A stretch of 64,000 nucleotides of DNA from Candidatus Latescibacterota bacterium (GCA_965242865.1 CBDETK010000008.1:32001-96000); one strand, 5' to 3'; shown: positions 9,867 through 31,748, counted from the first letter of the stretch. The notes: a model not told the origin generated them from the letters alone. A program made the numbers and translations.

Positions 9867-10751
9867 ATGATCACCTACGTCAACGGCAACCTGTTCGAGG
9901 CACCAGCTAGAGTCTTGGTGAACACCGTGAATACTGTCGGTGTAATGGGGAAGGGCATTGCGCTAGATTTCAAACGGATTTATCCGGAGATGTTCAGTCG
10001 ATATCAACACTTCTGTGAGTCTGGACAGCTAGCGATTGGAAAATTGTACCTATTCAAGACCGATCAGAAGTGGATTCTCAATTTCCCAACAAAAAAGCAC
10101 TGGAAAGCCCCTTCTCGGCTCGAATATATCGAGGCAGGTCTCAAGAAGTTTGTTTGCCACTACGCAGATGTTGGCATTACATCAATCGCATTCCCCGCCC
10201 TCGGCTGCGGAAATGGAGAACTGGACTATGACACTCAGGTTCGACCACTCATGGAGGATCACTTGAATAGCATTCCGATCTCAGTCTTCATATATCTGAA
10301 TCGCCCTACAACGACTCCCCCAAGGCACCGGGACGTAGAGCGAATCGCCGTTTGGTTGCGTCAAGATCCTCCGTCACTTCCGTTTGACTGCGTGTTGAGA
10401 GATGTGCATAATATTCTGGCGAACGCAAGACCTTTGCATACAATCGACAGGCAACACGAATTTGTAGCACAATTCAAGAGTAATCCTGTGCGACTGCAGA
10501 TTACATCCGCCGGTCATTCGTTCGCATACTCGGAGGATGTACTCTGGACATTTTGGCAGAGACTTAGGGAACATGGACCAGTATACGAAGAGATCTTGGC
10601 GGACTACCATCAACCATTGTTCCTCATTTCAGTTTTCGTAATGCTTCCATATGTTCAACAGATTCAAGTAGCTCGGTCTCCTGATCAACTCTGGAATGAG
10701 CCGCATATTGGGCTGCAGATCAAACCAAGTTACCGAGGACATGACCTCTAG
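9867..10751 (+). CDS. macro domain (DarG-like ADP-ribose glycohydrolase) protein
   Basis: MITYVNGNLF, LVNTVNTVGVMGKGIAL.FK, ILNFPTKKHW..PS, SIAFPALGCGNG; lower GC. Confidence 0.9.
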   Translation: MITYVNGNLFEAPARVLVNTVNTVGVMGKGIALDFKRIYPEMFSRYQHFCESGQLAIGKLYLFKTDQKWILNFPTKKHWKAPSRLEYIEAGLKKFVCHYADVGITSIAFPALGCGNGELDYDTQVRPLMEDHLNSIPISVFIYLNRPTTTPPRHRDVERIAVWLRQDPPSLPFDCVLRDVHNILANARPLHTIDRQHEFVAQFKSNPVRLQITSAGHSFAYSEDVLWTFWQRLREHGPVYEEILADYHQPLFLISVFVMLPYVQQIQVARSPDQLWNEPHIGLQIKPSYRGHDL

Positions 10752-10915
10752 TCAGTCGAAAATGTTAAGGGCTTCCAGCTCTTGAGTGCGGGTGTGGATG
10801 CTGGCGGAATCCCTCAGCAGTCTCGATCGGATCGCTTGGTCGGGGCGAATCGAACTGCTTGCGGCGGGCTCGGGGTACTCGGACCTCGAACGCAGGCACG
10901 GGTGCCCTTGCCGCC
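10735..10915 (+). repeat. dispersed structured repeat, copy A (shorter)
   Basis: Aligns to the reverse complement of 16448-16738 (about 48 of the first 60 nt identical, ungapped, counted by eye) and to 31466-31748. Confidence 0.85.
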
Positions 10916-11022
10916 CAACACGTCTGGCAAGATCCGCTCCACGTAATCTTCGGCTGCGACGGGATCTTTGGAGGATCCGGGGCTACGCGCGAGGCGGGTG
11001 ACTCGATCCGCCCTACAATTGA

Positions 11023-12000
11023 TTGTTGGATCACGCGACCGAATCGGTTTCGGACTTGGCGGCAAGCCTCGACCCAGTACCCGGATTGCACGTTGAGGCC
11101 GGTGTGCCGTTGAAGGCCCACACGCGCTTCGCCGTCGGTGGTCCCGCCGACCTGTTCGCTTGGGCCAGGACGCCGTCCGCCTTAGGTGCTGCGTTCCGAG
11201 GCGCACGGGAAGCCGGCATACCCTTCTACCTGCTGGGGGACGGGAGCAATGTAGTCGCGTCAGACGCCGGCTTCCGAGGCTTGGTGGCGCGGTACGTGGC
11301 GGACGGCTTGGAGTGTCGCGACGGAGTGATCGAGGCCGAGGCAGGGGGAAGTCTCCAAGCGCTGGTAGACCTCTCGATCGACAACCGTCTCGAGGGGATG
11401 CACACGCTGACGCGGATCCCAGGATCGGTGGGCGGAGCGGTCTACGGGAACGCGGGCGCGTACGGGCATCAACTCGACGAGTTCGTGCGTCGCGTGGATT
11501 TTCTCGATGACGGCGAATTGCGCTCGTTCGGCTCGGAGGACTGCGAGTTCGAGTACCGCGAATCCGTTTTCAAGCGGAACAAGGACTGGTTGATCCTTGG
11601 CGTCCAGCTCGAGCTGCCGCGGGGCGACTCGGCCGCTTTGCGGGCCCGCGCCGAAGAGATTCGAGCGGTGCGCGACGAGAAGTTCCCTCCGACCATGCGT
11701 TGCGCCGGCAGCATCTTCAAGAATCTCTACCTCAGCGCCTTGCCGCCGCAAGCCGCCGCGATCGTTCCCGAGCGGGCCGTGCGGGGCGGCAAGGTGGCGT
11801 CAGCGTTCTTCCTCGAGCAAGTTGGCGCGAAGGGTATGCGCAACGGCGGCATCGAGATTGCTTCGTATCATGCCAACTTGCTTTACAACCGGGGCGGCGG
11901 GACGTCCACCCAGATTCGCGAGTTAGTGGTAGAACTGAAGGTGCGCGTCCGGGATCGCTTCGCCTTCGAGATCGAAGAGGAAGTGCAGTACGCGGGTTGA
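11023..12000 (+). CDS. murB: UDP-N-acetylenolpyruvoylglucosamine reductase
   Basis: HTRFAVGGPAD, GDGSN, IPGSVGGAVYGNAGAYG, YRESVFK, AGSIFKN, HAN, EEEV. Confidence 0.95.
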   Translation: MLDHATESVSDLAASLDPVPGLHVEAGVPLKAHTRFAVGGPADLFAWARTPSALGAAFRGAREAGIPFYLLGDGSNVVASDAGFRGLVARYVADGLECRDGVIEAEAGGSLQALVDLSIDNRLEGMHTLTRIPGSVGGAVYGNAGAYGHQLDEFVRRVDFLDDGELRSFGSEDCEFEYRESVFKRNKDWLILGVQLELPRGDSAALRARAEEIRAVRDEKFPPTMRCAGSIFKNLYLSALPPQAAAIVPERAVRGGKVASAFFLEQVGAKGMRNGGIEIASYHANLLYNRGGGTSTQIRELVVELKVRVRDRFAFEIEEEVQYAG

Positions 12001-12043
12001 GGGGGATCCGATCCGTTGCGCCGGACGACGGGAGCGAATTGAC

Positions 12044-12718
12044 ATGAGGCGAATGCTGCTGGCCTTGGCGCTGTTCGGGTTCGCGGCGGCGGCACCCGCC
12101 GCGGACTGGAAGGATCTGCTGGGCAACGGCTTGGACGACTGGCGGGTGCTGGGCGACGGCCATTGGCGGTTGCGCTCCGACGGCGTGGTCGTTGCTTCGT
12201 TCGGCCATGATCGCCAACAGGAATTGCAGGGTACCGGCCCGATCGACCGGCAGGCGTTCGTGCGCTGGAGCACGCGGCAGTCGTGGCTCTACACAGTGCG
12301 TGATTTCGAGGAATTCGACCTGCATCTCGAATACTGGGTCAACACTCCCGGGAACGGCGGAATCTCGATTCGCGATCCCTCGCAAGCGCGTTGCGGCATC
12401 GCGGAGCGACCCGATTACAGCTGCACTCCTTCCAAGCTCGGTTACGAGATCCAGATCGACAGCGAGTACACCGGCAAATGGGCGACCGGCTCGATCTATG
12501 GACTGGTGAGGGCCCCGGATGGATTGGACGTGCCAGGGGAGTGGAACCGGATCAATATCGAATCGCGCCGCGATGCGATCCGGGTGTACGTCAACGGAGT
12601 GCTGGCCTCCGAGCATCCCGGCGATCCGGAGCGGCCCAAGAAGGGTCCGATCGGCCTGCAGCTGCACGATCTGCACAGCTTCGTGATGTTCCGCAACCTG
12701 TGGATTCTGGAGTACTGA
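12044..12718 (+). CDS. DUF1080 (3-keto-disaccharide hydrolase family) secreted protein
   Basis: Signal peptide; F.LHLEY, GNGG, GYEIQI, TGSIYG, WN, GPIGLQ.H, FRNL. Confidence 0.9.
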   Translation: MRRMLLALALFGFAAAAPAADWKDLLGNGLDDWRVLGDGHWRLRSDGVVVASFGHDRQQELQGTGPIDRQAFVRWSTRQSWLYTVRDFEEFDLHLEYWVNTPGNGGISIRDPSQARCGIAERPDYSCTPSKLGYEIQIDSEYTGKWATGSIYGLVRAPDGLDVPGEWNRINIESRRDAIRVYVNGVLASEHPGDPERPKKGPIGLQLHDLHSFVMFRNLWILEY

Positions 12719-12726
12719 CCGCCGAC

Positions 12727-14295
12727 TCAAGACGATTCCGCCTCGACATCGACGAAGCGTACTTCCTGTCCCCGGCGGATCTGCGAATGCTTGCGGAATG
12801 CCGATCGCGGCTCCGGGAAGTCCGAGCGGTAGTGGCCTCCCCGGCTTTCTTCTCGCCCTAGGGCGCAGCGCGCCACCAGCCGGATGATTTGGTACATGTT
12901 ATCGGTCTCGAATCCGGCCCGGCTGCTCCGCGCCAATCCCTTCTCGAACAGCGTCGACAGCAGGTCGAGTTGCTCGAGGCCCGCGCGGAGGCCTTCCCCG
13001 GAACGGGTGATGCCCGCGTGCCGCCAAGCGAGGTGGCGCAGGTTGGCGATGGCGTTGCCGGGCAGTGCGCTGGCCGGTCCCCGGTGCTTGATGCTCGGCC
13101 TCCGCACGGGCGCGTCGATTCTCGAGCGCATGGTTTCACCGGCCTCCGCTCCGAATACGAGCCCTTCGAGCAGCGAGTTGCTGGCCAGGCGGTTCGCACC
13201 GTGGACGCCGTTGCAAGCGACTTCGCCAGCCGCGAAAAGGCCGGGCAGGGTGGTAGAGCCATCGAGACTCGTCACCACCCCGCCCATCGCGTAGTGCGCC
13301 GCCGGGTGGACGGGGACCGGTTCGAGTTCCAAGTCCACGCCGTACGCCAGACAGGTTCGATAGACGCGCGGAAAGCGTTTGCGCACGTGCCCCGGCGCGA
13401 GGTGGGTCAGGTCGAGATAGACCGGACCCTTGCGCAAGCGCGCCAGCTCGCGCACGATGGCGCGCGAGACGATGTCGCGTGGCGCCAGTTCTTCGCTCTC
13501 GTGGTAGCGGGACATGAAGCGCTGCATGTCCGCGTTGCGCAGCACCGCTCCCTCGCCTCGCAGAGCCTCTGACAGCAGGAAGCGCGGAGCACCTTCCAAG
13601 AACAGCGCCGTGGGGTGAAACTGGACCATCTCCATGTTCGCGACCGTGGCCCCGGCCCGATAGGCCATCGCCACGCCGTCGCCGGTCGCCACGACCGGAT
13701 TTGTCGTCTCGCGATACACCCGGCCAATGCCGCCGGTCGCGAGCAGGACGGCGCGGGAATGGATGGGGACGAGCTCGCGCTGCTTCTCGTCCCACGCCAC
13801 GGCCCCGCAGACCTCTCCGTCCTCCATCAGCAGGTCGACCACCGACGAGAAACTTTGGAAAGAAATCGCCTCGATCGCCTGCGCCTTGCGAAACAGCGTG
13901 CGGGCGATTTCCCGTCCGGTCGAGTCGCCGTCGGCGTGCAGCACGCGATTGACGCTGTGGGCGCCTTCGATGGCGAAGGTCAGCTTCCCGCCGGCCGTGT
14001 CGAATTCGGCGCCCCAGTTGATCAGTCGCTGGATCCTGCGCGGACCGGCTTCGGCCAAGGCGCGAACGGCGCGCGGGTCGCAGAGCCCTGCGCCGGCGAG
14101 CAGCGTGTCCTGTTCGTGCAGGCGCACCTCGTCTTCGTCGCTCAGCGCGACTGCCACGCCCCCTTGCGAGTACTCGGTGGCGGACTCGGTCAGGCGATCC
14201 TTGGTCAGAACCAGCACCCGGCCGGCCGCGGAAGCCTCAATTGCGGCACTCAGTCCGGCGACCCCCGCGCCGCACACCAGAATGTCCGTTTCCAT
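12727..14295 (-). CDS. nadB: L-aspartate oxidase
   Basis: GAGVAGL, SQGGVA, EGAHS..RVLH, QFHPT, SEALRGEG, AHYAMGG, GVHGANRLASNSLLE. Confidence 0.96.
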   Translation of the reverse strand: METDILVCGAGVAGLSAAIEASAAGRVLVLTKDRLTESATEYSQGGVAVALSDEDEVRLHEQDTLLAGAGLCDPRAVRALAEAGPRRIQRLINWGAEFDTAGGKLTFAIEGAHSVNRVLHADGDSTGREIARTLFRKAQAIEAISFQSFSSVVDLLMEDGEVCGAVAWDEKQRELVPIHSRAVLLATGGIGRVYRETTNPVVATGDGVAMAYRAGATVANMEMVQFHPTALFLEGAPRFLLSEALRGEGAVLRNADMQRFMSRYHESEELAPRDIVSRAIVRELARLRKGPVYLDLTHLAPGHVRKRFPRVYRTCLAYGVDLELEPVPVHPAAHYAMGGVVTSLDGSTTLPGLFAAGEVACNGVHGANRLASNSLLEGLVFGAEAGETMRSRIDAPVRRPSIKHRGPASALPGNAIANLRHLAWRHAGITRSGEGLRAGLEQLDLLSTLFEKGLARSSRAGFETDNMYQIIRLVARCALGREESRGGHYRSDFPEPRSAFRKHSQIRRGQEVRFVDVEAESS

Positions 14296-14353
14296 GCCGT
14301 CGCGGGCCTGTCGCGCCGTCCGCCGCGAAGCCCATGGTACAAAAGGGACATCG

Positions 14354-15460
14354 ATGTTCGTTCCCGTCGAGACAGGCTCTGGACGCTACGAGGTTCGCAT
14401 CCGAGCTGGCACGCTCTTGCAGGCTGCGGTCTATATCCGCGAAGCGCTCGGGGAACGGAGGCTGTTTGTCATCGCGGATGAAGCGGTTTGGGACGCTCAA
14501 GGGCACTACTTGACGAGCGGGTTGGCTGACGCGGACTGGGCCGTGCTCGCAGTGCCCCTAGGGGAGCCGCGCAAGCGTTTGGCCACGGTCGAGCAACTGT
14601 GCGAGGCGATGCATGTCGCGGGAACTGATCGGCACACGGTCGTGGTGGCATTCGGCGGAGGGGTCGCGGGTGATATTTGCGGATTCGTGGCCGCGTCGTA
14701 CATGCGCGGCGTCGATCTCGTGCAAATCCCCACCACCTTGCTGGCCCAAGTCGACGCCTCCGTGGGCGGCAAGACCGGAGTGAATCTCGCCACCGGGAAG
14801 AACTTGGTGGGCGCGTTCCACCAGCCGAAGCTCGTGCTGATCGACCCGGATATTCTCGAGACCCTGCCGGACCGGGAGTATCGCGCGGGCGTGCAGGAAG
14901 TTGTGAAGCATGGCGTCATCCGCAGCGCGGAGCTATTCGAGTTCATGGAAAAGGAGCGGGATGCCGTTCTGGCCCGAGAGAGCAAGGCTGTCGAATACAT
15001 GATTGCGGAGTCGGTGCGCATCAAGGCGGACGTGGTGCGGCGTGACGAGCGCGAAGGCGGCCTGCGTCGCATCCTGAATTTCGGGCATACGCTCGGTCAC
15101 GCCTTGGAGGCGGAGACCGGATACAGCCTCCTGTTGCATGGAGAGGCTGTCGCGTTCGGCATGATCGCTGCTGCGAGGCTGTCCGAACTGCGCGGCCGCC
15201 TCGCGACGCGCGAACGCAAGAGGATCGAAGCGACCGTGCTTTCCTACTGCGACCTGCCGGACTTGTCTGACTTGGATGCCGTCGCAATAGCGTCGCGGGT
15301 CGCGGGCGACAAGAAGTCTGTTGGAGGGCAGGCGCGCTTCGTGCTGGCCGAAGGGATCGGAAGCGTTTGCGAGGAAGTCGCCCCGCCCCAGGAACAAGTC
15401 ATTAATGCGACCAAGCACGCCTTGCGGGTTTGTCGCACCAAGGGCGGGTCAGCAGGATAG
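14354..15460 (+). CDS. aroB: 3-dehydroquinate synthase
   Basis: GGGVAGD, PTTLLAQVDASVGGKTGVN, LNFGHTLGHALE, HGEAV; real start ATG 14354. Confidence 0.96.
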   Translation: MFVPVETGSGRYEVRIRAGTLLQAAVYIREALGERRLFVIADEAVWDAQGHYLTSGLADADWAVLAVPLGEPRKRLATVEQLCEAMHVAGTDRHTVVVAFGGGVAGDICGFVAASYMRGVDLVQIPTTLLAQVDASVGGKTGVNLATGKNLVGAFHQPKLVLIDPDILETLPDREYRAGVQEVVKHGVIRSAELFEFMEKERDAVLARESKAVEYMIAESVRIKADVVRRDEREGGLRRILNFGHTLGHALEAETGYSLLLHGEAVAFGMIAAARLSELRGRLATRERKRIEATVLSYCDLPDLSDLDAVAIASRVAGDKKSVGGQARFVLAEGIGSVCEEVAPPQEQVINATKHALRVCRTKGGSAG

Positions 15461-15463
15461 CTG

Positions 15464-16234: not shown

Positions 16235-16447
16235 CCGGGCAAGATCTGAAATCCTGCCGAAGTAATGCTCGCGCCACCGTAGCGTGCCTGCTGGAGTGCA
16301 GGACTCGCTTTCTGATGATGTGAGACCGTCGAATGAGTCGAGACGCCAACCCCATTAGCGAGCAACAGAGCTTGCTGTGACTGATTTCGGCTGCCGACAG
16401 CCAGAGTGGGGCAAGCGCGGAGCGTAGCGGGGGATCCGTTCCCGGCC

Positions 16448-16738
16448 AGCGCGTAACACCGGGCTACCGCGCCGGGTGCGCACGAGCGGTGTCCGAGCGG
16501 GTGGCTTCGTGGCGGTCAGTCGGCACAGATCACGATTCGCATAGGTAACGCATAGCGTTCGGCGAGGGCGCACTCGCCCGCGGCCGAGGTCTTGTTGCCC
16601 CAAATCTGCCGCCAGCAGTCCGATCCGCCCCGACCGAACGATGCGATCCAAGCTGATTAGGGATTCCGATGGCATCCACACTCGCGCTCAAGAGCCAAAA
16701 GTCCTAATCATTCTCAACTGGCCAGAGGTCATGTCCTC
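16448..16738 (-). repeat. dispersed structured repeat, copy B
   Basis: Reverse complement begins GAGGACATGACCTCTGGCCAGTTGAGAATGATTAGG and aligns to copies A and C, over ~290 nt with C. Confidence 0.85.
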
Positions 16739-17128
16739 TGAGGCCCCGGCCAGGATTCTCGAATCGACCCCAGGCTGTTTCGCTGCACCTCTAGCAACAA
16801 GCAGCGGGCCTCGCAGCCTTGGCTCTGAGAGAGCCTGCCTAGTACGATTGCTCGCCCAGATGACTCTCAGCTTCGCGAAAAGATATCTTGCTTCCCCAGA
16901 ATCGTCAATGACGACTTACCACATTCCCTGCCGGTGCCCTGAACGCATGCTCGATCCCGCGTGCAAATCAACCGGGGCGGCCACACCTGCATTCGACACT
17001 CGCACTTGACCTCCGACCTGCAGCAATGGTAAGCTGACACCTCAGAGCGGGCACCGTCGCCGGTCGCGTACGGCCTCGGCACAGATCGCCAAAACAATAA
17101 CCGGCAGCCTGTTCTATGTGGGGCACGA

Positions 17129-18796
17129 ATGGCAAAATCTCGCTATCTGTCTGCGCTCGGCTCGGAAGACCGCCAGCTACTCGTGCGCCAGCTTCACAGG
17201 CTGCAGAATCGTCGCTGTTTCATCTGCACGAGCGAGATCGATCTAGACCTTCACAAGGGGCAGATCGACATCGATCACATTGACCCGCTATTGGAGGACG
17301 GACTCGATGACCCAAGCAACTTCGCTCTGACGCACGCCAAGTGCAATCGCAGTAAGGGTGCCTCAAATCTGCAGGTAGCCCGGCGAGTAGCGGAGTTTGA
17401 ACGACTGCAAGAACAAGCGCGTAGACAGGGGAAGCGAGGAGCAGATCTAGGGGATGTCTTGTCCCTACATGATGGCAGTAAAGCTGACTTGAGACTTTTG
17501 GTCGAGAATGATCGTGTCAAGTATAGTTTGCCAAACAGCGGCAATGAGGGAGTATATACGGAACGATTGATGCATGATAAACTGAGCAATATGGATTCCT
17601 TTGTGGCACAGTTTCCTCTTGAATATCTACATCACGATGACCGGATCAATCCTCGTAGCATAGGATCGAACATCAGGAATCTGATCGAAGAGTTCTTGGC
17701 AAGGCGCCCGCAGCTTCATATGGCTCTTGGATGGTGGGAGCCAGACGAAGCGAACAGCCAGACACAGGGTAAGCTACGTCTGTTCGATGGGCAACATAAG
17801 GTTGCCGCCCAGATACTATTGGGAGTTAGGACTATACCGGTCCGCGTCTTCGTTTGTCCCGATACAAATGTACTGCTCAAAGCCAACACTAATGCAGGCG
17901 GCAAGTTACGCCAAGTGGCATTCGATTCCGCTGTCATGCGCCACCTAGGCAACACGCTCTATGAGGAGCGTGTCAACCAATTTCGGCAAATGCGGAGATT
18001 GCCTGATAACGATCTTTCGTTTTCTGAACAGGACCTAGTCAAATTCTTTAGGGGAGAGAGCCGTGAAATGATTCGCTATATCATCGACGCACAGAGAGAT
18101 CGAATTACGCGTAATTCCGACAATAAGCTCTTGGATTTCGTCGAGTGGTCTGGAAGATCGAACCAGCTCCCGATGGCATATCATACGGTTGAACGCTCGT
18201 TTTTCAAGGAATTCCTCTACCAAAAAGCACTAGATACACCACTCGATGAGGGGTATGAGCAGGGTTTCAATCCCCGCCAACTGGAGCGTGAACAGTTGAC
18301 TAAAATCATGTCTCTATTTTCCGAAGTGTTCTTAATCAATAATTGGGATCGCGAAATCGGCGGAAGACGCCTTGAAACCCGTGTCCACGCAGGAGAGAAG
18401 ATTCCCGAGAATCATCTTCGTGCTTGGCGTGTCTCTAGAGAGGAAGTACTTGCGATCATTGTACGATATTTGAAGCTCGTAATCACTAACTATCTTGCTT
18501 GGACGGGAGCGTATGAGGAAGAAGATCGACTCCTACATAAGTGCTTGCCTGACGAAGTGTGGACACGAATGGAGAACTTCCTCTCCAACTTGGCTGGCCT
18601 GCCATGCTGGATTGATGGTAGTTTAGCAACGACAGTTTTTGGAGCAAAGCAGAATCGGGATTATTGGGTGAGCATTTTGAAGACCGGGAAAACCCCATCA
18701 GGTATCGAGGTCTTGGCACAACCACTCAAAATCCAAGAGATGATCTTGGATAGGGCTCAACACGATGTCAGCTTAGATCTGCAGATGCACCCCTGA
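17129..18796 (+). CDS. HNH endonuclease fused to a ParB/DGQHR-like domain, putative defence nuclease
   Basis: N-terminal CFIC...DHIDP....G.DD.SN....H.KCN.SKG; central LFDGQHKVAA; lower GC. Confidence 0.8.
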   Translation: MAKSRYLSALGSEDRQLLVRQLHRLQNRRCFICTSEIDLDLHKGQIDIDHIDPLLEDGLDDPSNFALTHAKCNRSKGASNLQVARRVAEFERLQEQARRQGKRGADLGDVLSLHDGSKADLRLLVENDRVKYSLPNSGNEGVYTERLMHDKLSNMDSFVAQFPLEYLHHDDRINPRSIGSNIRNLIEEFLARRPQLHMALGWWEPDEANSQTQGKLRLFDGQHKVAAQILLGVRTIPVRVFVCPDTNVLLKANTNAGGKLRQVAFDSAVMRHLGNTLYEERVNQFRQMRRLPDNDLSFSEQDLVKFFRGESREMIRYIIDAQRDRITRNSDNKLLDFVEWSGRSNQLPMAYHTVERSFFKEFLYQKALDTPLDEGYEQGFNPRQLEREQLTKIMSLFSEVFLINNWDREIGGRRLETRVHAGEKIPENHLRAWRVSREEVLAIIVRYLKLVITNYLAWTGAYEEEDRLLHKCLPDEVWTRMENFLSNLAGLPCWIDGSLATTVFGAKQNRDYWVSILKTGKTPSGIEVLAQPLKIQEMILDRAQHDVSLDLQMHP

Positions 18797-19114
18797 AGAA
18801 AATCGCCACCAGTCATACATCAGTTTGAGGGAAGTCCGCTCTGTTGGACTGAGATTTGATTCAACTGACGGAGTGAAAAGGCGTGTTCCTAGCGTGTTAA
18901 AGGGCTAAGGTACAATATGTACAAGCAGGTCGAAATTGAGTAATTGGCGTGACGAATCTCGTTTCACAGTCTAGTAATCCGAGTCAATTCGTTGGATAGG
19001 ATCTAGGTGATATGGCTGATGCATAGGCTGCAAGTACGCGCAAATCGCAAAGGGCTAACGACATAGAACCGATCAGCCAGCGAGACGTCGGGGCGGATCC
19101 TGAAGGGTTGGCGT

Positions 19115-20992
19115 TTACGGAGTGTTCCACGGCAATGACAGGTCCGGCATGTTGGCGTAGCGATCCATGCCTAGTTCGAGACGTCGTCCAGCACCCGGCG
19201 CCAGTTTCACCGCGATCAGCTTGGAGTCGATGTTCCGCATGCCGCTTCCTTCGCCATCGTCCACGCCTGTGAACTGGTGCTCGGCGTAGCCGCCCGCCTG
19301 GACGAGCACTTCCCGTGCTTCCGCTTGGTTGACATTGACCAACGTGACCGCGACCGAGTCGTCCCGCAATTCGTGTACCAAGGCGGCCACGTCCGGCGGC
19401 AGGCCGGCTCGCTTGCGTTCGGGGTCGAAATAGCGCAGTCGGCTGTGCAGCACCCAGATGCGGCCGCGGGCGAAATATCCCCCGGTGGTCAGCCGAGTCA
19501 AGGTCTCGGTGGTTGCCGGCATGATCCCCAGCAGGTAGTCGGCAAGCCTTGTCTCCGCAGTCGTGGTGTCATTCCGCTGCGCTGCGAGGCGATCGCGAAT
19601 GTGTCGGAAGTCCTCTTGCATGGCGCGGATCGGGTAGCTCGGATCGGCGCCTTGCAGGAACGCAATCCACCGTTCGTCCGCTAGCGGTATGCGAGCGAGG
19701 TCTCGGTCTTGCATGGACCACAGGTAGATCTCGGCGAGGCGGTCCGAGTAGGTGACCGGCTGGTAGCGATAGAACTCGGGTTCCCCGTCGAACGCGTAGC
19801 CGCGCGGGTCGCCGTACATCATGGGCAAGAGCGTCTTCCCGTCCACTACCTTGGCCGCGTCCAGCACGAGGTCCATCTGCTTGCGCAAGACATCGATGTA
19901 CGCTTGGTCGCCTGTCAGCAGCAGGCCGTTCGCGAAGCCTTGGAAGCTCGCCGCCGTGAAGTAGTTGCGGTGGGCGATCTGCTGGAGCTCGCCGTCGAAG
20001 ATCGTGAAGTTCCAGCCGTACGTGCCCTTCCACCACTGCCCGTCGTGCTCCCCGCCGAGGGATCCGTCCAGCCCGATGTTCGACGGGATCATCCCGCCCG
20101 TGGCTGCGGCCCGCTCCCGCCATGCGTCGAGGTATTCCAGCGTCCAGTCGCGGTACTTGTCCTTGCCGGTCAATGCGTACGCGTTCGTGGTCAGCAGGGT
20201 CGCCGCTAGATTCAAAAAGTTGTCACCGACCGAATCGAGATATTCGTCGCAGTGCGCCAGCATGCGCGGGTACCACTGCTCGAGGTCCAGGAGCTTGGTC
20301 GTCCGGGCCGGGTTGTGCAGCAGGTGGAACTTGCCCGGCACCGGATCGCCCACCCAGTCGTACACGGTCGCCCGGCGCAGCATCGGCCCCAAGCTGCCGT
20401 TCCAAATGCTCTTGATGATTCTGGTTTGCGGATCGTAGTTCCCGTACCGGGGATCCTCGCCCGTGTACATCCGCGAAAACCGTTCCATGCGGTCCACGAA
20501 CCGCTCGTCATGAGGGTCCGCATGCCCCATCAGGAAGAACGCTCTCATGCCCTCGCCCGTGTGGAACCAATCCGACTGGGTGATGAATTCTTCGCGGTAC
20601 GCGCCCTCGCTCGCCAGCGTGGTGAGTTCCGTGCGGAGCTCGCCGTACTGCTGCAGGTGTCCCTCCAAGCCGCGCTTGTAGAGTTCCAAGACGGAATCCG
20701 AGCCGCCGAGGGCATGCAGCAGCGTCCAGTTGTAGAAGGTCTCGATGGCGTCGTCCGGTCCGTCAAGCGTGCCCCAGCGCGGCGTGTGCAGCAGGTAGCC
20801 CCGTTCGTCGAGGTAGCGCGCGGCGAAGGCTTCGACAGCCTTGGAATTCGCGTCCAAGAGCGCGCGCTCCATGAGCGCCCAGCCCGGCGGCGGCATCGCC
20901 TCGTCGATGTTAACCACCGGTACTTGGCCGAAAGCGGCCGCGGTCAGGAGGAGCGTTCCGGCGACACAGGACTTCATGGTGATCCGCAGCAT
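19115..20992 (-). CDS. conserved secreted hypothetical protein (probable alpha/alpha-barrel carbohydrate-active enzyme)
   Basis: Long GC3-rich ORF with signal peptide; WG..DGPDDA.E.F.NW, DWFH.GE, GYAEHQF; fold is inferred; start 7 nt after TACCAT. Confidence 0.75.
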   Translation of the reverse strand: MLRITMKSCVAGTLLLTAAAFGQVPVVNIDEAMPPPGWALMERALLDANSKAVEAFAARYLDERGYLLHTPRWGTLDGPDDAIETFYNWTLLHALGGSDSVLELYKRGLEGHLQQYGELRTELTTLASEGAYREEFITQSDWFHTGEGMRAFFLMGHADPHDERFVDRMERFSRMYTGEDPRYGNYDPQTRIIKSIWNGSLGPMLRRATVYDWVGDPVPGKFHLLHNPARTTKLLDLEQWYPRMLAHCDEYLDSVGDNFLNLAATLLTTNAYALTGKDKYRDWTLEYLDAWRERAAATGGMIPSNIGLDGSLGGEHDGQWWKGTYGWNFTIFDGELQQIAHRNYFTAASFQGFANGLLLTGDQAYIDVLRKQMDLVLDAAKVVDGKTLLPMMYGDPRGYAFDGEPEFYRYQPVTYSDRLAEIYLWSMQDRDLARIPLADERWIAFLQGADPSYPIRAMQEDFRHIRDRLAAQRNDTTTAETRLADYLLGIMPATTETLTRLTTGGYFARGRIWVLHSRLRYFDPERKRAGLPPDVAALVHELRDDSVAVTLVNVNQAEAREVLVQAGGYAEHQFTGVDDGEGSGMRNIDSKLIAVKLAPGAGRRLELGMDRYANMPDLSLPWNTP

Positions 20993-21014
20993 GCCCACTA
21001 TGGTAGTCGTCCGT

Positions 21015-22694: not shown

Positions 22695-22828
22695 GGTCTC
22701 TCCAGTCCCGCTTGCTGCATTTCGCAGTATACGGAACGAGCGTCCCGGCCGATTCGCGACGGTGATACAATGCTGAAACTCTCACGCGCCCGAGGGCGCG
22801 GGAATCCGTTCAAAGGAGTCGATTCAGC

Positions 22829-24261: not shown

Positions 24262-24410
24262 GGGCCTGATTGTAGCGAGGTCCGGTACTGGACCCCCTGC
24301 CGGGCGTCCGCGGCCGTCACTCGCCCCAACTGGTGCGTTCGCAGTGAGTTCATTCCAATTCGAAAATGAGCCTGAACGAGGGCCGAGGGAAGGGACGCGG
24401 GAACGGGGTG

Positions 24411-24440
24411 ATTATAGACCTTCGGGAGGGTGGGCTGCAA
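24411..24440 (-). promoter_or_regulatory. outward-facing promoter inside the IS end
   Basis: Minus strand TTGCAG-N18-TATAAT, pointing out of the IS towards 23824-24261. Confidence 0.55.
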
Positions 24441-24648
24441 GTCGTGTCCCACCGCCTCGGGCGCCCTTCCCTCGGGGCCAGCTCATGCCTAAGGAAAACC
24501 TTGGGGGGGTCGGGGGGCAAAGCCCACCTTCGGCTAACAAGGCTGCGCCCGCAGGGCGCAGACCGCTGACCCCGCTCGCGGATCCCGCGGCACGGCCCGA
24601 GGCGAAAAGCTCGATTCCAGCGTGAAGTGAGCCTGAACGCGGCCGCGC

Positions 24649-25899
24649 TCAGGCCGCTTCCCGCAGCTCCGCGAAGAGCGCCTCGCGGGCTTCCTGCAGC
24701 GCCCGCGCCGCCGCGTGATCCGTCTGCGCGTGCGCCTCCCGGTCCAGCTCCGCGAAGCTCGTGCCCGGCTTCAAGTAACGCGCCGCCTCCGGCAGCGCCT
24801 TGAGCCGCTCGTACGGCGTGCGGATGTCCGCCTGCCGGTACGCCTTGCGCCGCTTCCCCTTGGCGTCCGTCTCCACGTGCGGGAACAGGCACGGCCGGTG
24901 GTAGTTCAGGTACGGGGCCAGCACCTCCCGGTGGAACCGGTCCAGGCGCTCCGCGTGCCGCCCGGGGATGTGCCCGTACCCGAACTGCTTGCGGATCACG
25001 CTGCCGTTCTTGCTCTCCGCCAGGGCGTTGTCGTTGCTGCGCCGCGGGCGCGACTTGGTGAACTCCTCCACGCGCAGCTTCTCCAGCAGTTCGGCCACCT
25101 GGTAGTTGATGTACTCGGACCCGTTGTCGGAGTGAAACCCATGCACGGCAAAGGGGAACGACGCCAGCAGCCGCTCCAGCACCGGCAGCAGGTAGCGTTC
25201 CGAGATGCGCTCCACGCAGCCCGTGAACTGGTACTGGGTGACCTCGTCGACCGCGTTGATGTGGTACACCCCCTTGACCTTGTCGAGGTCGCCCTGATGC
25301 ACCGAGTCGACCCGCACCCAGCCCGGGCGGCCCTCCGGGCGCGGCTTGCGCCGCTCGCCGATCGGCGTCGGCGCGGGGCGCGTGCCGTCCAGGTTGCCGA
25401 GCACGCGCACGTACGCCTTCGAGTGCCGCAGGTTGTACAGATGGCCGTGGGAGATCCCCGCCAGACGCTCGTAGCGCTCGTCGCCGAAGACCTCGAAAGC
25501 CCGCCGCAGCAAGGCCATCGTGGCCGGGCCGGACAGCGTGCCGTGCAGCGCGTCCGTCTCGGCCAGCAGCAGGATGTCGTCCCGCGTGTAACGCCGCCGG
25601 AACGGTCGCGCCGCGCCCTTGCGCCCGTCCGCCAAGCCCCCTTTCTCGATGTACGCCGCGATCAGCCGCGCCACCTGCGCCCGCGACAGCCCCGTCGTCC
25701 GCTGCAAGTACGTCCGCAGCAAGCCCCGCTCCGCCCGCTTGGGCAGCTTCCAGTACGAGAACCGCCGCACCGTGCGCTCCACGTGCGCGTACGCCTCCGT
25801 GCGCGACGGCGCCAGCGTCGCCTCCGGCGGCGTCGCCTCCAGGAACTGACGCACGTCCGCCAAGGTCCTGTGCGTCGCCAGATCGATTTGCAAGATCAC
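24649..25899 (-). CDS. DDE transposase (integrase core domain)
   Basis: RVDSVHQGD, HSDNGSEYIN, FTKSRP..SNDNALAESKN; N-terminal HTH-like region. Confidence 0.92.
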   Translation of the reverse strand: MILQIDLATHRTLADVRQFLEATPPEATLAPSRTEAYAHVERTVRRFSYWKLPKRAERGLLRTYLQRTTGLSRAQVARLIAAYIEKGGLADGRKGAARPFRRRYTRDDILLLAETDALHGTLSGPATMALLRRAFEVFGDERYERLAGISHGHLYNLRHSKAYVRVLGNLDGTRPAPTPIGERRKPRPEGRPGWVRVDSVHQGDLDKVKGVYHINAVDEVTQYQFTGCVERISERYLLPVLERLLASFPFAVHGFHSDNGSEYINYQVAELLEKLRVEEFTKSRPRRSNDNALAESKNGSVIRKQFGYGHIPGRHAERLDRFHREVLAPYLNYHRPCLFPHVETDAKGKRRKAYRQADIRTPYERLKALPEAARYLKPGTSFAELDREAHAQTDHAAARALQEAREALFAELREAA

Positions 25900-26078
25900 C
25901 CTCCGATGATCCGCGCATCCCCTCCAGAGCCTCGTTGAGGCTCATCTCTCGTTGGAATCAACCCCCTCGTTGAGGCTCATCTCTCGTTGGAGAAGACTCA
26001 GTGATAGCTGGTTGTACGATAAAGGCCAAGGTGCCGGGCCGCGGCGCTTCGCCACTGGCCCGCCGCCCGAGCGACAGC

Positions 26079-27035: not shown

Positions 27036-27067
27036 CGGAATCGGTCTCGAGCAGGCGAAGGTGGGAA

Positions 27068-27154
27068 TGGTGCCCGGAGTGGGACTCGAACCCACACGTC
27101 CTTGCGGACAACGGATTTTAAGTCCGTTGCGTCTGCCAATTTCGCCATCCGGGC
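27068..27154 (-). tRNA. tRNA-Leu (anticodon TAA)
   Basis: GCCCGGATGGCGAAATTGGCAGACGCAACGGACTTAAAATCCGTTGTCCGCAAGGACGTGTGGGTTCGAGTCCCACTCCGGGCACCA: cloverleaf with long variable arm, GTTCGA T-loop, encoded CCA. Confidence 0.97.
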
Positions 27155-27261
27155 TGACTGCACCTGCTTTCATTGTAGGGAGTGGCCAATACGTCCGGAT
27201 CGGTCCCGGTCGGGCTCTCCGCGAGTCGCCGGGCCGGACGGGCACGAAGGAGGGTTGACCC

Positions 27262-28830
27262 ATGCGCAGCAAGCTCCGTTCTTGGCGGCTATCCGCCGTT
27301 CTAGCGACTCTCGCCTGCATTTCGATGCACGGCTTGTCCGGCGGTTCGGCGTCGGGCGCGACCGTTGGATCGGCCGAAGATTGCGAGCGCCTCGGCGAAC
27401 TGACCAACAGCGCGTACTCCATCCTCTCGGCGGAGTTCTTGCAAGCTGGCGACGAGGTCGCGGCACGCTGCCGCGTTGTGGGCGTTCTGCCGCCAGAGAT
27501 CGTTTTCGAGGTCGTCATGCCGGCTGCTTGGAACGGTCGCATCTTGATGCAAGGCAACGGGGGTTACGCCGGGACGTCACCAAACTCGCGAGGACGCAGG
27601 CAACGGTCCGCGAGAGTCGCTTCGCAAGGATTCGTCTCGGTCTACACGAACACCGGTCACGACCGGGTCAACGAACCGCTGGCCACGTTCGCTTTGAACA
27701 ATCGCCAAAAGGAGATCGACTACAGCTTCCGGGCCGTGCATCTGACCATCGTCACCGCCAAGGAACTCACCGAGACCTATTACGGGCGCCCGGCCAACTA
27801 CAGCTATTGGCAGGGCTGTTCCACCGGCGGTAGGCAAGGCTTGATGTCCGCCCAGCGCTTCCCCCGCGACTTCGATGGGATCGTGGTCGGCGCTCCCGTG
27901 CTGAACTTCACGGATACGCAGATTTCCGGGGCATGGAACGCAAAGGCGTTGGAGAATTCGGGGATCGGGCTGGACAAGATGAAGATCGTGGCGGACGCCG
28001 TCTACAGCCGTTGCGACACGCTCGACGGCCTGCAGGACGGACTCCTGGACGACCCCCGCAACTGCGACTTCGACCCTCGCCGGGATCTGCCGCTCTGCGA
28101 GTCGGGACTCGGAGAGGCTTGCTTCACCTCCGACCAGATCGAGGTGCTCGAGAAGGTCTACGGCGGCGTGATCAGTCGCGGCGAGACGCTTTTCCCCGGA
28201 TTTCCGTTCGGCTCGGAAGCCGCTCCCCCAACCGGGCGGCGGCGCACCAGCGGCTGGGCCGGGTGGCTGGTCCAAGGGGACGGACCTTCCCGGCAGCAGG
28301 TCTTCGCCGAGACGTTCCTGCGCTACATGGCCTTCGAGCCCGACGACCCCGATTACGACTGGCGCTCGTTCGACTATGACGAGGATCCGCATCGGATGGA
28401 CTTCATCCGTTCGATTCTCGACGCCACGGATCCCGATCTCGGGCGATTTCGAGACGCCGGAGGCAAGATGCTGATGTACTTCGGCTGGGCTGATACGGCG
28501 CTCAATCCGATGATGGGCGTCGACTACTACGAAGCCGTGCTGGAGGAATCAGGACCGGGAGTGGAAGACTTCTACCGGCTCTTCATGGTGCCGGGCATGT
28601 ACCACTGCGGAGGGGGTCTGGGGGTGTCCCAAACCGACTACCTCGGCGCTCTGATGAAGTGGGTGGAATCTGGCGAAGCCCCGGAACGCCTCGTGGCCGC
28701 GAGGGTGGTCAACGGCAGGAGCGAGATGACGCGACCGCTGTGTCCGTATCCGCAGATCGCTCAGTACGACGGCAGCGGGGACCCGAAGTCGGCGGACTCG
28801 TTCGCCTGTACAGACCCACCCGCGCGGTGA
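27262..28830 (+). CDS. tannase/feruloyl esterase family alpha/beta hydrolase, secreted
   Basis: WNGR..MQGNGG, GCSTGGRQG, DFDGIVVGAP, PGMYHCGGG, TRPLCPYP. Confidence 0.92.
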   Translation: MRSKLRSWRLSAVLATLACISMHGLSGGSASGATVGSAEDCERLGELTNSAYSILSAEFLQAGDEVAARCRVVGVLPPEIVFEVVMPAAWNGRILMQGNGGYAGTSPNSRGRRQRSARVASQGFVSVYTNTGHDRVNEPLATFALNNRQKEIDYSFRAVHLTIVTAKELTETYYGRPANYSYWQGCSTGGRQGLMSAQRFPRDFDGIVVGAPVLNFTDTQISGAWNAKALENSGIGLDKMKIVADAVYSRCDTLDGLQDGLLDDPRNCDFDPRRDLPLCESGLGEACFTSDQIEVLEKVYGGVISRGETLFPGFPFGSEAAPPTGRRRTSGWAGWLVQGDGPSRQQVFAETFLRYMAFEPDDPDYDWRSFDYDEDPHRMDFIRSILDATDPDLGRFRDAGGKMLMYFGWADTALNPMMGVDYYEAVLEESGPGVEDFYRLFMVPGMYHCGGGLGVSQTDYLGALMKWVESGEAPERLVAARVVNGRSEMTRPLCPYPQIAQYDGSGDPKSADSFACTDPPAR

Positions 28831-28969
28831 GCCTGTTCGGTCGTGCTTGAGGGGGTGGGTCCAAGGGTTCGGTGGAGGCCGGTGGATCAGCAATCGCGAG
28901 ATAGGGTCTCAGTCAGGTCGATCTGCTGACGACCCTCGGCAGTCTGACAGCTTTCTTCCATTCGGATCC

Positions 28970-28997
28970 TTGCAGTCCATGTCGCACACTGTATAAT
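28970..28997 (+). promoter_or_regulatory. putative promoter of the R-M operon
   Basis: TTGCAG-N16-TATAAT. Confidence 0.5.
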
Positions 28998-29064
28998 GGT
29001 ATTCGCCTGACGGCAAAGAAGTAGGCCTTTTCCCGCGTCCCCTTGACGCCCGAGTCCCGAAACC

Positions 29065-30510
29065 ATGGCGAGAGCCCAGTTGCACGAACAGCGCGACATC
29101 ATCGCAGAGCCTGTGATTCCACCTGTCACGTCTCCTCACGCTGGCGAGACTACGGCGCGCCAGCTGCTGAACGACCGCTTCGGGGGCCGGGTCGCATTCG
29201 ACCCGGAGTTCACTCGTAGAACAGTCTCGTACCAAGGCAACCGACAAGTCCCCGGACTGCGCTGGATGAAATACAAAGAGGGATTCTCCAGAGCCTTGGT
29301 GGACTACCTGCTGGATGAGTACAAGCCGAATCGTGTACTCGATCCGTTCGCTGGGATAGGCACCACGCCGCTGATCGCCGCCGGTCGGGGAATGCAGGCC
29401 ACCGGAATCGAGATCATGCCGGTCGGGGTCCTCGCCGGTGCCGGAGTTGCTGCAGCTGCTAACGGATTGTCGAGCGTGGCTATCAAGAACGCCGCGGATG
29501 CTATCCAGAATCGGTTGGGGTCGGCGCGGCCCGCTGCACGCAGCCATGCTTTCCCTCACGTGCGGATCACCGAGGGGGCCTTTCCAGCCGAGACTGAGAG
29601 CACCATCGGGAAAGCCCGTGAGTTCATCGCAGGAATGGAGGACGGGCCGGCGAAGACGCTGGTGAATCTTGCTTGTATGTCCGTACTCGAGGCCGTGAGC
29701 TTCACCCGGAAGGACGGCCAGTACCTCCGCTGGGATACCCGATCCGGGCGCAATCTGCGGGCCAGAATGCACAAGGGCCCCATTCTGTCGTTTCAGGATG
29801 CCCTTGAATCACGTCTCTCAGAAATAGCTAGCGATTTGGAATTCGTCAAGCGCAAGTATGGCCGTGGCAGCCCTGAGCTTGTGAACGGCTCCTCCCTTGA
29901 ACTGCTCCGAACCATGCCCGACGCGGCATTCGACATGGTGATCACGTCTCCGCCGTATGCGAACCGTTACGACTACACCCGAACCTACGCGCTGGAACTG
30001 GCTTGGCTGAACCTAGATCAGACTGGTTTCGCTAGGCTCCGGCAACAGATGCTCTCTGCAACTGTTGAAAACCGGAGCAAACTCGATGCACTCAGTGACC
30101 TGTACGCTGACAGGCCGGACCTCCTGCAGCAGGCAGTCACTAGGTACGAGAAGCAAGCGGCTCTTCACGAAGTGCTACGCATACTGAGAACGCATGCCGC
30201 CGAACTTGGCAACCGCCATGTTATACGGCTACTGGAGGGATATTTCCTAGAGATGGCTCTCGTAGTGGCCGAACTTGGGCGCTTAGTGCGACCGGGTGGC
30301 AACGTGATCATGGTCAACGACAACGTGCAATACCATGGGGAGGAAATTCCGGTCGACTTCATTCTTGCCGACCTTGCTGAGCAATCGGGGTTCACCTGCG
30401 CGAAAATCTGGACACTAGCTCGTGGCAAGGGAAATGCGAGCCAACAAATGGGGCGGTTTGGACGTCGCGAGATCCGCAAGTGCGTCTACCGTTGGGTTCG
30501 GGAACGATGA
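29065..30510 (+). CDS. type II DNA methyltransferase (N4-cytosine type, SPPY)
   Basis: RWMKYKEGFS, motif I DPFAGIGTT ahead of motif IV TSPPYANRYDY. Confidence 0.9.
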   Translation: MARAQLHEQRDIIAEPVIPPVTSPHAGETTARQLLNDRFGGRVAFDPEFTRRTVSYQGNRQVPGLRWMKYKEGFSRALVDYLLDEYKPNRVLDPFAGIGTTPLIAAGRGMQATGIEIMPVGVLAGAGVAAAANGLSSVAIKNAADAIQNRLGSARPAARSHAFPHVRITEGAFPAETESTIGKAREFIAGMEDGPAKTLVNLACMSVLEAVSFTRKDGQYLRWDTRSGRNLRARMHKGPILSFQDALESRLSEIASDLEFVKRKYGRGSPELVNGSSLELLRTMPDAAFDMVITSPPYANRYDYTRTYALELAWLNLDQTGFARLRQQMLSATVENRSKLDALSDLYADRPDLLQQAVTRYEKQAALHEVLRILRTHAAELGNRHVIRLLEGYFLEMALVVAELGRLVRPGGNVIMVNDNVQYHGEEIPVDFILADLAEQSGFTCAKIWTLARGKGNASQQMGRFGRREIRKCVYRWVRER

Positions 30511-31418
30511 GTGGACACAAGGACCTGATTCGGCGCTCGAAGTTTCTTTCGGAGCGAATCAGACAACGCACTGACGTCAAGATGAGAGGGCTCGTCGACG
30601 ACTTTCCCGCTCCGCTCGATTTCCAAGACAGGGAAGACCTGCTGATCAGCCAGTCTGCTTGGGAGTACGTAACCAAATCAGGAATCAAGCTGCAGCAAGT
30701 CTTTGCTCACCCTGACTTACTGCGGATGCACCCTGAAACATCGCTTTATTACCGCGGGCTCGCACTGCTTCCATTGAAAAGGGTGCGCACAGCAGTAGGA
30801 GTTGAAGTGAAGTATTGGGAGAAGGGCTTGGTTGAGAACCTGCCGATGGAAAGCGCAAAAGCAGTCTGTCGCCTCTACAACAGCGTCGTTTCCTCGATCA
30901 TCGAAGGAGCTACTGACTGGACGTTGGAAAACGGCTACCGAAACATAATGCACAGCATCGGGATAACGCTCGACGGAGTATTCCGGAACACCATAGGCCA
31001 AGATGCCGAGCGACTGATAAAAACCAAGATTGAAGACTGGCTGCGCGAGCATGAAATGATTGTAGAGCAGGGATCTCGAACTGAATTTGTACTCGCAGGT
31101 GGTGTGAATATGATTTATGGGAGTGACCCCGACATCCTGTTCAAACGGCTAGGACGACAACTAGCCACCATTGAAATCAAGGGTGGCAAAGACCCCGCTG
31201 GCGCACTCGAGCGCCTTGGTGCCATGCAGAAGAGCTTCGATGCAACGCCTGCCACTTGTCAGAACATCCTAATTGCAGGCGTCGTTACGGCGGAAATGCA
31301 GACCCGACTCGAGCAGCTAGGTGTCCGTAGCGTCTTTATCCTTGACGACCTCTTGAATGACGACGAATGGCGCAGATTCACTCGAGAAGTATTCCATCAC
31401 ATACTTCGACTTCATTAG
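30507..31418 (+). CDS. type II restriction endonuclease, PD-(D/E)XK, XcyI-like family
   Basis: SDPDI...ATIEIKGGKDPAGALERLGA; ATGA overlap with the MTase; lower GC. Confidence 0.75.
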   Translation: MSGHKDLIRRSKFLSERIRQRTDVKMRGLVDDFPAPLDFQDREDLLISQSAWEYVTKSGIKLQQVFAHPDLLRMHPETSLYYRGLALLPLKRVRTAVGVEVKYWEKGLVENLPMESAKAVCRLYNSVVSSIIEGATDWTLENGYRNIMHSIGITLDGVFRNTIGQDAERLIKTKIEDWLREHEMIVEQGSRTEFVLAGGVNMIYGSDPDILFKRLGRQLATIEIKGGKDPAGALERLGAMQKSFDATPATCQNILIAGVVTAEMQTRLEQLGVRSVFILDDLLNDDEWRRFTREVFHHILRLH

Positions 31419-31465
31419 GGATCTCCCCTAGGTGACTTGGTTGGTAATTACCTAGGCACCAGTCA

Positions 31466-31748
31466 ACATGACCTATGGCCAGTTAAGAATGTTAAGGGAT
31501 TTCCAGCTCTTGAGCCCCAATGCGGAAGCTGTCGGAATCCTTGATCAGTCTCAATCGGATCCTTTCGTTGGGGCAGATCGGACTGCTCGCGCGGGTTGGG
31601 AACACCAAGATCCAGACCGCGCGCGAGTGTGCCCTCGCCGAACGCTACGCTTTGCCAGTGCAAGTCGTGATCCCAGCTAGTTGTCCGCCACGAAGCAGCC
31701 CATTCGACAAAGGTTCGCGCAACCCGCGCGGTAGCCCGCCACAGCGCT
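31466..31748 (+). repeat. dispersed structured repeat, copy C
   Basis: ACATGACCTATGGCCAGTTAAGAATGTTAAGGG... aligns to copies A and B. Confidence 0.85.

Follow-up and report, generated by a model that had tools for sequence, protein, structure and literature searches.

A probable miniature transposon family among strain-variable defence genes of an uncultured acidobacterium

The stretch of DNA analysed here, 64,000 nucleotides (nt) long and referred to below as the window, comes from contig C8 (154 kb; the window is C8:32001-96000) of an assembly deposited as Candidatus Latescibacterota bacterium (GCA_965242865.1; CBDETK010000008.1) and carries three diverged copies, A, B and C, of a dispersed repeat. 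Copy A overlaps the stop of a macro-domain, DarG-like gene; copy B lies upstream of a gene for an HNH protein; copy C follows the genes for a type II methyltransferase and an XcyI-type endonuclease. In the initial annotation, the repeat was described as a long stem-loop with covarying base changes that borders a defence gene at every occurrence, and was taken to be a structured noncoding RNA, a recombination site or a transposon-like element that might belong to an undescribed cassette-capture system. Our analysis indicates that the repeat is very probably a noncoding, non-autonomous DNA transposon, that is, a miniature transposable element with inverted repeats (MITE), which lodges in strain-variable, defence-bearing DNA.

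The three copies are present where they were first placed; homology among them sets in abruptly at (C)AGNNNACATGACCT in each, and the BLAST E-values (2e-21 to 5e-42) exclude chance similarity. The distances to the neighbouring genes hold as well: the DarG-like open reading frame (ORF) takes its final codons and its TAG stop (10749-10751) from the head of A, the head of B (16740) is 389 nt from the start of the HNH ORF (17129), and the ACATGACC of C begins 47 nt past the end of the endonuclease ORF (31418). When the copies were compared with the whole assembly by BLAST, a fourth copy, D, was detected at C8:126576-127028 (minus strand), about 31 kb outside the window, along with a single 79-nt partial match on contig C5; all four copies, A-D, are on C8.

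The homology between copies C and D extends over 452 bp, with 85% identity, and breaks off sharply on either side, so that the element is longer than the ~280 bp initially recognised; across copies, its length ranges from 452 to 485 bp. The ends are imperfect terminal inverted repeats (TIRs) with a 13-bp core, CAGNCRACATGAC, that extends to about 23 bp when one indel is allowed. The 5' end reads CAG(T/A)CAACATGAC and the 3' end GTCATGTCG(T/C)CTG, which is CAG(A/G)CGACATGAC on the other strand; in copy C, 11 of the 13 bases match between the two TIRs. Throughout the 6-Mb assembly, the TIR pattern occurs exclusively at the four ends of C and D. Several 1-nt indels distinguish C from D, and such indels separate the subfamilies introduced below, too; ORFs beginning within A, B and C do not stay in frame from copy to copy, and a Pfam search of the ORFs within the copies yielded no matches. 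The element is therefore noncoding. A scan of copy C for promoters and terminators revealed nothing promoter-like or terminator-like.

Contig C8 does not come from the organism represented by the main contig of the assembly. Its MurB, NadB, 3-dehydroquinate (DHQ) synthase, UbiE and LipA are just 29-55% identical to the copies on that 5.6-Mb contig, the UbiE of genomes assigned to the 'same genus' has an identity of about 40% to the UbiE of C8, and the NadB of C8 shows 75-86% identity to proteins from metagenome-assembled genomes of Bryobacterales (Acidobacteriota), which implies that C8 was binned into this assembly from another organism and that the bin is chimeric. For this reason, the absence of the element from the 40 genomes taken as relatives of the assembly is uninformative, these genomes being the wrong comparison set. 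C8 is collinear with positions 1475680-1635836 of contig C5 of a different genome, denoted G115, at 96-99% identity, save one 703-bp block at 85%; G115 is therefore a complete genome of the same species. The host is a Bryobacterales (Acidobacteriota) species found in sponge metagenomes, and part of the region occurs in a public run that bears the sponge-metagenome label. The element was detected in one of 77 genomes of the family (G115; three others gave only matches of 26-31 nt, with E of 0.004-0.007), in one of 401 genomes of the order (two candidates scored per genome) and in none of five complete Bryobacterales genomes. The 80 syntenic loci from related genomes contain no copy, and pattern scans of metagenome contigs for the head and for the tail of the element gave zero matches each.

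In G115, copy C has 42 BLAST matches (among 40 scored of 118 candidates) and is 85-86% identical to the full-length copies; the TIR pattern produced 90 hits, and its reversed control none. The loci retrieved from this genome contain at least 55 distinct copies that fall into several subfamilies. Target-site duplications of 5-6 bp (exact match of at least 5 bp, with an offset of 0-1 permitted on either side) flank 27 of the 45 G115 copies for which both ends were located, compared with 23 of 1980 mismatched-flank controls; GATAC, TGGTT, CGCCC and GCATGC are examples from the alignment of the flanks, and in the window, copy C is bounded by its own duplication, AGGCA. Nearly half of the aligned subfamily-1 copies (15 of 31) cluster at 97% identity or above, which suggests recent spread. 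Noncoding, a few hundred base pairs long, bounded by TIRs and target-site duplications and present in dozens of copies in a conspecific genome, the element is identifiable as a MITE, in agreement with the definition given in the available parts of two reports (PMC6382973; PMC10969869); this bears out the MITE-like option, with its expected duplications, among those initially listed. The element represents a new MITE family in an uncultured acidobacterium; elements of this kind, and the composite mechanism discussed below, are already known. Three copies have their head replaced by a sequence, 'X', that is another repeat and not a gene. A 775-bp stretch at G115:C5:2609053-2609827 (L170) combines TIRs of the same kind (CAGATCACATGACC, CAGACAACATGACG) with an unrelated interior and may be a second MITE family using the same ends.

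Copies A and B are incomplete. B reaches 88% identity, across 368 nt, with three G115 copies (L137, L139 and L143) that are themselves about 480 bp long, and diverges from the G115 copies after AGCCGAAATCA, its final 75-95 bp, including the 3' TIR, being missing or decayed. The possible relic of another tail near B (Table 1) is a 14-nt exact match to consensus positions 403-416 and is weak (E=0.088). Copy A has an orthologue at the same site in G115 (1518407-1518585), within a block of 98.9% identity. Copy A is directly followed (window 10905-10955) by a 52-nt piece with 85% identity to another multicopy repeat of G115, one that L148 contains and that in L177 forms inverted repeats on both sides of an IS1634-family element. 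The presence of this piece at its end suggests that copy A was shortened by another mobile element.

Table 1 Features of the window and of related loci (window coordinates unless another source is named)
Feature	Coordinates	Strand	Details
Copy A, 5' ~180 bp of the MITE	10733-10915	+	Head CCGAGGACATGAC
Imperfect hairpin of copy A, as initially annotated	10763-10819	+	Outer stem 10763-10771/10811-10819; inner stem 10776-10779/10800-10803
Copy B, subfamily-2 MITE	16333-16740	-	~408 bp recognisable; head CAGAGGACATGAC at 16740
Tentative relic of another MITE tail	16870-16883	-	TCTTTTCGCGAAGC; ~130 nt from the head of copy B
Copy C, full-length MITE	31460-31911	+	452 bp; C/D alignment ends at both TIRs
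Left TIR of copy C	31460-31472		CAGTCAACATGAC
Right TIR of copy C	31899-31911		Other strand reads CAGACGACATGAC
Left target-site duplication of copy C	31454-31458		AGGCA; extra base C31459 between duplication and CAG
Right target-site duplication of copy C	31912-31916		AGGCA
Macro-domain DarG-like gene, beside copy A	9867-10751	+	Pfam Macro 1.6e-17; PADLOC DarG 5.5e-63
HNH protein gene, beside copy B	17129-18796		Pfam HNH 5.5e-07; weak PtuB and Cas9-HNH matches (PADLOC)
Type II methyltransferase gene, beside copy C	29065-30510		PADLOC 3.7e-110
XcyI-type endonuclease gene, beside copy C	30480-31418		Pfam RE_XcyI 3.6e-15
Fic protein gene, far side of copy C			Pfam Fic 2.5e-19
GmrSD/HEC-05-like protein gene, beside copy D			
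Slot 1, strain-variable	16235-19123		Copy B and HNH gene, between convergent 3' ends of UbiE-type and 627-amino-acid core genes
Slot 3, strain-variable	28872-32051		Type II methyltransferase, XcyI-type endonuclease, copy C and a further 140 bp
3' stub of C5-methylase gene intact in G115	32052-32422	+	End coordinate from ORF 31919-32422
Slot 6	C8:123911-127150		GmrSD-like gene and copy D; G115 counterpart of 2987 bp, containing other genes and the relic of a MITE tail (94 bp)
Composite-type MITE pair	G115, 553842-558974		Outer duplication GTGCC; cargo: repeats and an ISAzo13-family insertion sequence
Composite-type MITE pair	G115, 1723447-1727185		Outer duplication GACAAA; cargo: weakly AbiEii-like nucleotidyltransferase and a 338-amino-acid partner
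Composite-type MITE pair	G115, 1882725-1885154		Outer duplication AGTCC; cargo: 1.5 kb without family matches

The claim that every copy borders a defence gene stands: conflict genes adjoin all of A-D, and B, C and D lie in segments that vary between strains. The DarG-like gene scores 200.7 bits against the NCBIfam DarG model, under the 250-bit cut-off. In L014, the homologues of p809 and MurB are 74 bp apart; given that the flanking genes are adjacent in other species, the macro gene and copy A form an insertion, which the window strain and G115 share at the same site. Comparison with other species further indicates that the patatin and 627-amino-acid (aa) genes are conserved core genes rather than parts of an island. 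At slot 1, G115 (C5:1523907-1525966) has 2060 bp encoding a PtuA Septu ATPase (6e-183) and no MITE, and 10 related species have a conserved 229-aa gene, which B and the HNH gene replace in the window; one breakpoint is the UbiE stop codon, and the other falls two codons short of the stop codon in the convergent 627-aa gene. At slot 3, G115 has 1051 bp with the 5' part of a C5-cytosine methylase gene (ORF 1534214-1535110) and, again, no MITE. The 3' stub of this gene in the window implies that slot 3 is a replacement that deleted the 5' part of the methylase gene, and the right breakpoint is inside that gene. None of the slot breakpoints is at a TIR. Copies B, C and D are confined to the 11.8 kb (7.7%) of C8 that have no homologue in G115; under random placement, at least three of the four copies would fall there with p of ~0.002, a value that is to be read with the qualification that the copies themselves lengthen those segments.

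The alternative slot alleles coexist in public runs. Among the contigs of four runs from two studies, we found the joint 16235>19124, which encloses 2059 other letters, and the joint 28871>32052, which occurs in runs X1 and X4 and encloses 1051 letters. The window alleles belong to a minor strain in X1 and X3, at a depth of 13-15 vs 105-120 in X1. A contig from a sponge-metagenome run has ~3.35 kb at slot 3, which is apparently a third allele. In related Bryobacterales (L017-L025), the gap between NadB and a 224-aa gene holds differing inserts of 1.0-5.7 kb, for example, one with an 830-aa protein in L018; this gap is another variable slot and is empty in the window.

The 98 ORFs adjoining the G115 copies match 49 Pfam families, with DNA_methylase, AAA_21, AAA_15, Uma2, SMC_N and AAA_16 at the top (three each), followed by ResIII and Peptidase_M78 (two each), whereas the 90 control ORFs match 91 families, among which TPR, outer-membrane barrels and sulfatases rank highest; the comparison is one of tallies, with no formal test. 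The low G+C content of the flanks, quantified below, and the families of the neighbouring genes agree with a preference of the MITE for accessory DNA or with its better survival there.

Several observations weigh against our interpretation. Under the rule stated above, 18 of the 45 G115 copies have no target-site duplication, and copy D likewise has none. Neither an empty-site allele nor precise excision of C was found in the comparison with G115 and with the contigs of the four public runs, where no joint removes copy C alone, so that mobility is inferred from the duplications and the copy number, not observed. The lower G+C content of the flanks (0.600 up to 1 kb from the 54 G115 copies with sufficient flank vs 0.630 at random positions; p=9e-11) was gauged against 5000 random sites from a single 200-kb region. 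With PADLOC, 274 families were matched in the 98 neighbouring ORFs vs 160 in the 90 control ORFs, numbers that do not tell neighbours from controls, the control region being itself rich in defence genes and the output being per family only. The covariation in the hairpin exceeds that in the controls, which leaves room for an additional function. Finally, no autonomous partner with matching ends was identified in G115 among the TIR-pattern hits, the inspected solo TIRs and three insertion sequence (IS) types, the transposase genes not having been screened exhaustively.

The three IS types were rejected as parents on account of their ends: those of the IS1634 family start with CTAGCC (10 inspected of the 11 above the cut-off in G115), those of the ISAzo13-family IS read GGGGACAG and are accompanied by a TTAG duplication, and those of a 1653-bp rve-type IS are TG..CA. 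The solo TIR hits in G115 are truncated or nested MITE copies. The 1653-bp IS is located at window positions 24346-25998, between aquaporin and lipoyl-synthase genes, and has a 416-aa ORF with a weak rve domain (29.6 bits, under the cut-off); there are at least 10 copies in G115, with 93-100% identity, and the window site lacks it both in G115 and in the strains that dominate three public runs. A 2.0-kb ISAzo13-family IS at G115:C5:1556502-1558513 is absent from the corresponding site of the window (~53460).

Pairs of MITE copies could affect the DNA between them. Among the 18 pairs of G115 copies that are less than 10 kb apart, three share an outer duplication while neither member has one of its own (Table 1), compared with 23 of 1944 controls, and at several G115 loci MITE pairs bracket single accessory genes, namely, a RelA/SpoT-like gene, ThiF and two paralogous 525-aa AAA ATPases. 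The latter are 81% identical and are located between MITE pairs at G115:C5:1867166-1869961 (L131) and 2554097-2557494 (L139). The three composite-type cases suggest that MITE pairs are able to move intervening DNA, in line with one half of the earlier proposal that the repeat mobilises cassettes; the other half, that the cassettes are defence genes, finds a counterpart in just one of the three cargoes, through a weak AbiEii-like match.

These pairs raise the question of whether the MITE is the vehicle of the defence genes, such that the macro gene with A, B with the HNH gene, the restriction-modification genes with C and the GmrSD-like gene with D arrived as MITE-bounded composites, one end of which was later lost. 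Besides the composite-type pairs and the bracketed accessory genes of G115, the truncation of A and B, which is what decay would give, and the possible second tail near B point in this direction, and there is a precedent in MITE pairs around integrons and a mer region, described in the accessible part of one report (PMC6382973). The window copies, however, do not behave as members of composites: C has its own 5-bp duplication and hence was inserted singly, A and B lack their 3' ends, the far ends of the window slots bear neither a second copy nor a TIR, the slot breakpoints are at core-gene ends or inside the deleted methylase gene and not at TIRs, the G115 alleles of slots 1 and 3 have no MITE, and the only defence-like composite cargo is weakly so. 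We regard this possibility as quite unlikely. A broader version, in which MITE pairs routinely capture single defence genes and shuttle them between one-gene slots, with the hairpin serving as the module recognised by the transposase, strikes us as unlikely; if true, it would make the MITE the main shuttle of the immune gene pool in an uncultured symbiont.

The hairpin that first drew attention to the repeat was tested on its 12 pairs in 29 copies from all subfamilies, with the 3' partners slid by 1-3 columns as the control. The stems originally quoted were verified (for example, CAGC at 10776-10779 and GCTG at 10800-10803). Standard pairs fill 79.9% of the cells vs 30-51% with slid partners, the covariation score is 0.196 vs 0.04-0.10, and both sides changed in 18 cells, a number matched in 0 of 500 shuffles. 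Double changes are limited to 4 of the 12 pairs. Pair 49/77 is C-G in 16 sequences and U-A in seven, unpaired in five and gapped in one; pairs 39/89 and 37/91 are unpaired in 26 and 14 of the 29 sequences, respectively. The RNAalifold consensus has an energy of -3.6 kcal/mol with a covariation term of -0.15, and the single-sequence folds are not better than those of shuffled sequences (z of -0.3 to -0.9; -0.72 for copy A). A caveat of the covariation tool is that related sequences can exceed shuffles without any structure. What survives of the covarying stem-loop is thus a conserved imperfect inverted repeat with few compensatory changes, which is not unusually stable. In our reading, the transposon has here a conserved subterminal inverted repeat, to which the transposase or a host factor may bind.

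Were the 5' hairpin instead a functional structured RNA, or an attC-like single-stranded DNA recombination site marking cassette ends, with the rest of the repeat incidental, the excess of pairing over the slid controls, the 18 both-side changes and the switch of pair 49/77 from C-G to U-A in seven sequences would be readily accommodated. This is, nevertheless, very improbable, considering that the homology spans 452 bp with inverted ends and target-site duplications, that the folds are unexceptional, that copies occur in both orientations relative to the neighbouring genes, that the element is several-fold longer than attC and has the GTT on the 5' arm, and that C contains no promoter-like or terminator-like site. 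A search of Rfam with copy C gave no match even at E<=1, and the whole window, at the gathering thresholds, yielded only a tRNA (27071-27154). The HEARO/IscB omega-RNA was considered given the HNH neighbour of copy B, and the HNH protein scored 24.9 bits against the IscB model, for which the cut-off is 175. That the repeats are decayed pieces of a duplicated protein-coding gene is hardly credible: ORFs of 71-130 aa have a common starting point in the three window copies, and a peptide-like stretch (ECALAERYALP..) is common to C and, with the frame shifted, to B, but the frame differs between subfamilies by 1-nt indels, Pfam gives no hits, the only longer relative retrieved from 5.8 billion proteins was a 226-aa ORF, on a 1248-bp contig, and the boundaries are accounted for by the TIRs and target-site duplications.

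For the MITE, we propose that a DDE-type transposase supplied in trans would bind the ends of the element and make a staggered cut of 5-6 bp in the target, giving rise to the direct duplications of this length. The family, with its several subfamilies, has multiplied in one Bryobacterales species. Copies accumulate in lower-GC, strain-variable accessory DNA, much of it bearing single defence genes wedged between core genes, which explains the defence gene next to each copy in the window. Judging from the breakpoints, the slots would turn over by homologous recombination within the core genes on either side, at times accompanied by deletion, and the MITE inserts into the slot DNA or travels with it; two nearby copies can, as the three G115 cases suggest, act as a composite transposon and carry along the DNA that separates them. 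We consider recombination in the flanking core genes the likely route of slot exchange. As two of the three alternative alleles contain no MITE and C has its own duplication, slot turnover does not require the element, which is a lodger in the variable segments and not the mechanism of their exchange; the idea of an undescribed cassette-capture system falls on the same facts, the other strain having a different defence gene and no MITE at two of the three variable sites.

What appeared as a hairpin beside every defence gene thus becomes a mobile element with defined ends, a target-site duplication and subfamilies, which helps the annotation of uncultured sponge-symbiont genomes and keeps such repeats from being mistaken for recombination sites or regulatory RNAs. 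Set against G115 and the public runs, the window directly shows that defence slots of one or two genes, situated between core genes, are swapped among coexisting strains. MITE pairs carrying genes provide a testable route for the shuffling of accessory genes in an uncultured lineage.

The attC sites of integrons are imperfect palindromes of ~60-140 bp that have RYYYAAC on their 5' and GTTRRRY on their 3' side and are arranged in one orientation in an array beside intI. The element resembles them as a repeated imperfect palindrome next to single, promoterless-looking accessory or defence genes, but differs in having TIRs and target-site duplications, in its length of 452 bp, in its mixed orientations and in its dispersal between core genes without forming an array; moreover, its GTTAAGG-like sequence is on the 5' arm, with the polarity opposite to the attC consensus. 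Repetitive extragenic palindromic (REP) sequences and bacterial interspersed mosaic elements (BIME) are palindromes of 20-40 bp that lack TIRs and duplications and are associated with RAYT transposases; the size, TIRs and target-site duplications of the present element contradict such an identity.

Closer counterparts are bacterial MITEs. According to the available text of one report (PMC6382973), a 439-bp MITE flanks class 1 integrons in Acinetobacter and MITE-297 flanks a 76-kb mer region. As far as that text goes, our element is similar to these in being noncoding and a few hundred bp long, with TIRs, and in that two copies can bracket accessory genes, but it has no sequence relationship to them, belongs to another host phylum (Acidobacteriota, from sponge metagenomes), is chromosomal and present in dozens of copies, has anti-phage defence genes instead of resistance genes as neighbours and makes a 5-6 bp duplication. 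The same source, in the part available, describes MITEAba12, a 113-bp element with an identified parent (ISAba12) and an AT-rich preference, which can fuse to the ends of neighbouring genes. The present element shares with it, on that description, the non-autonomous nature, the TIRs and target-site duplications, the lower-GC surroundings and the fusion to a gene end (copy A to the DarG-like ORF), and differs in its length of 452-485 bp and in that no parent was found among the candidates inspected. The slots themselves are comparable to the core-genome defence hotspots of, for example, Pseudomonas aeruginosa, as presented in the accessible portion of PMC10250203, in that fixed intergenic positions hold different defence genes in different strains; the hotspot concept, however, refers to the slots and not to a repeat, whereas here the slots contain one or two genes each and are often dotted with MITEs.

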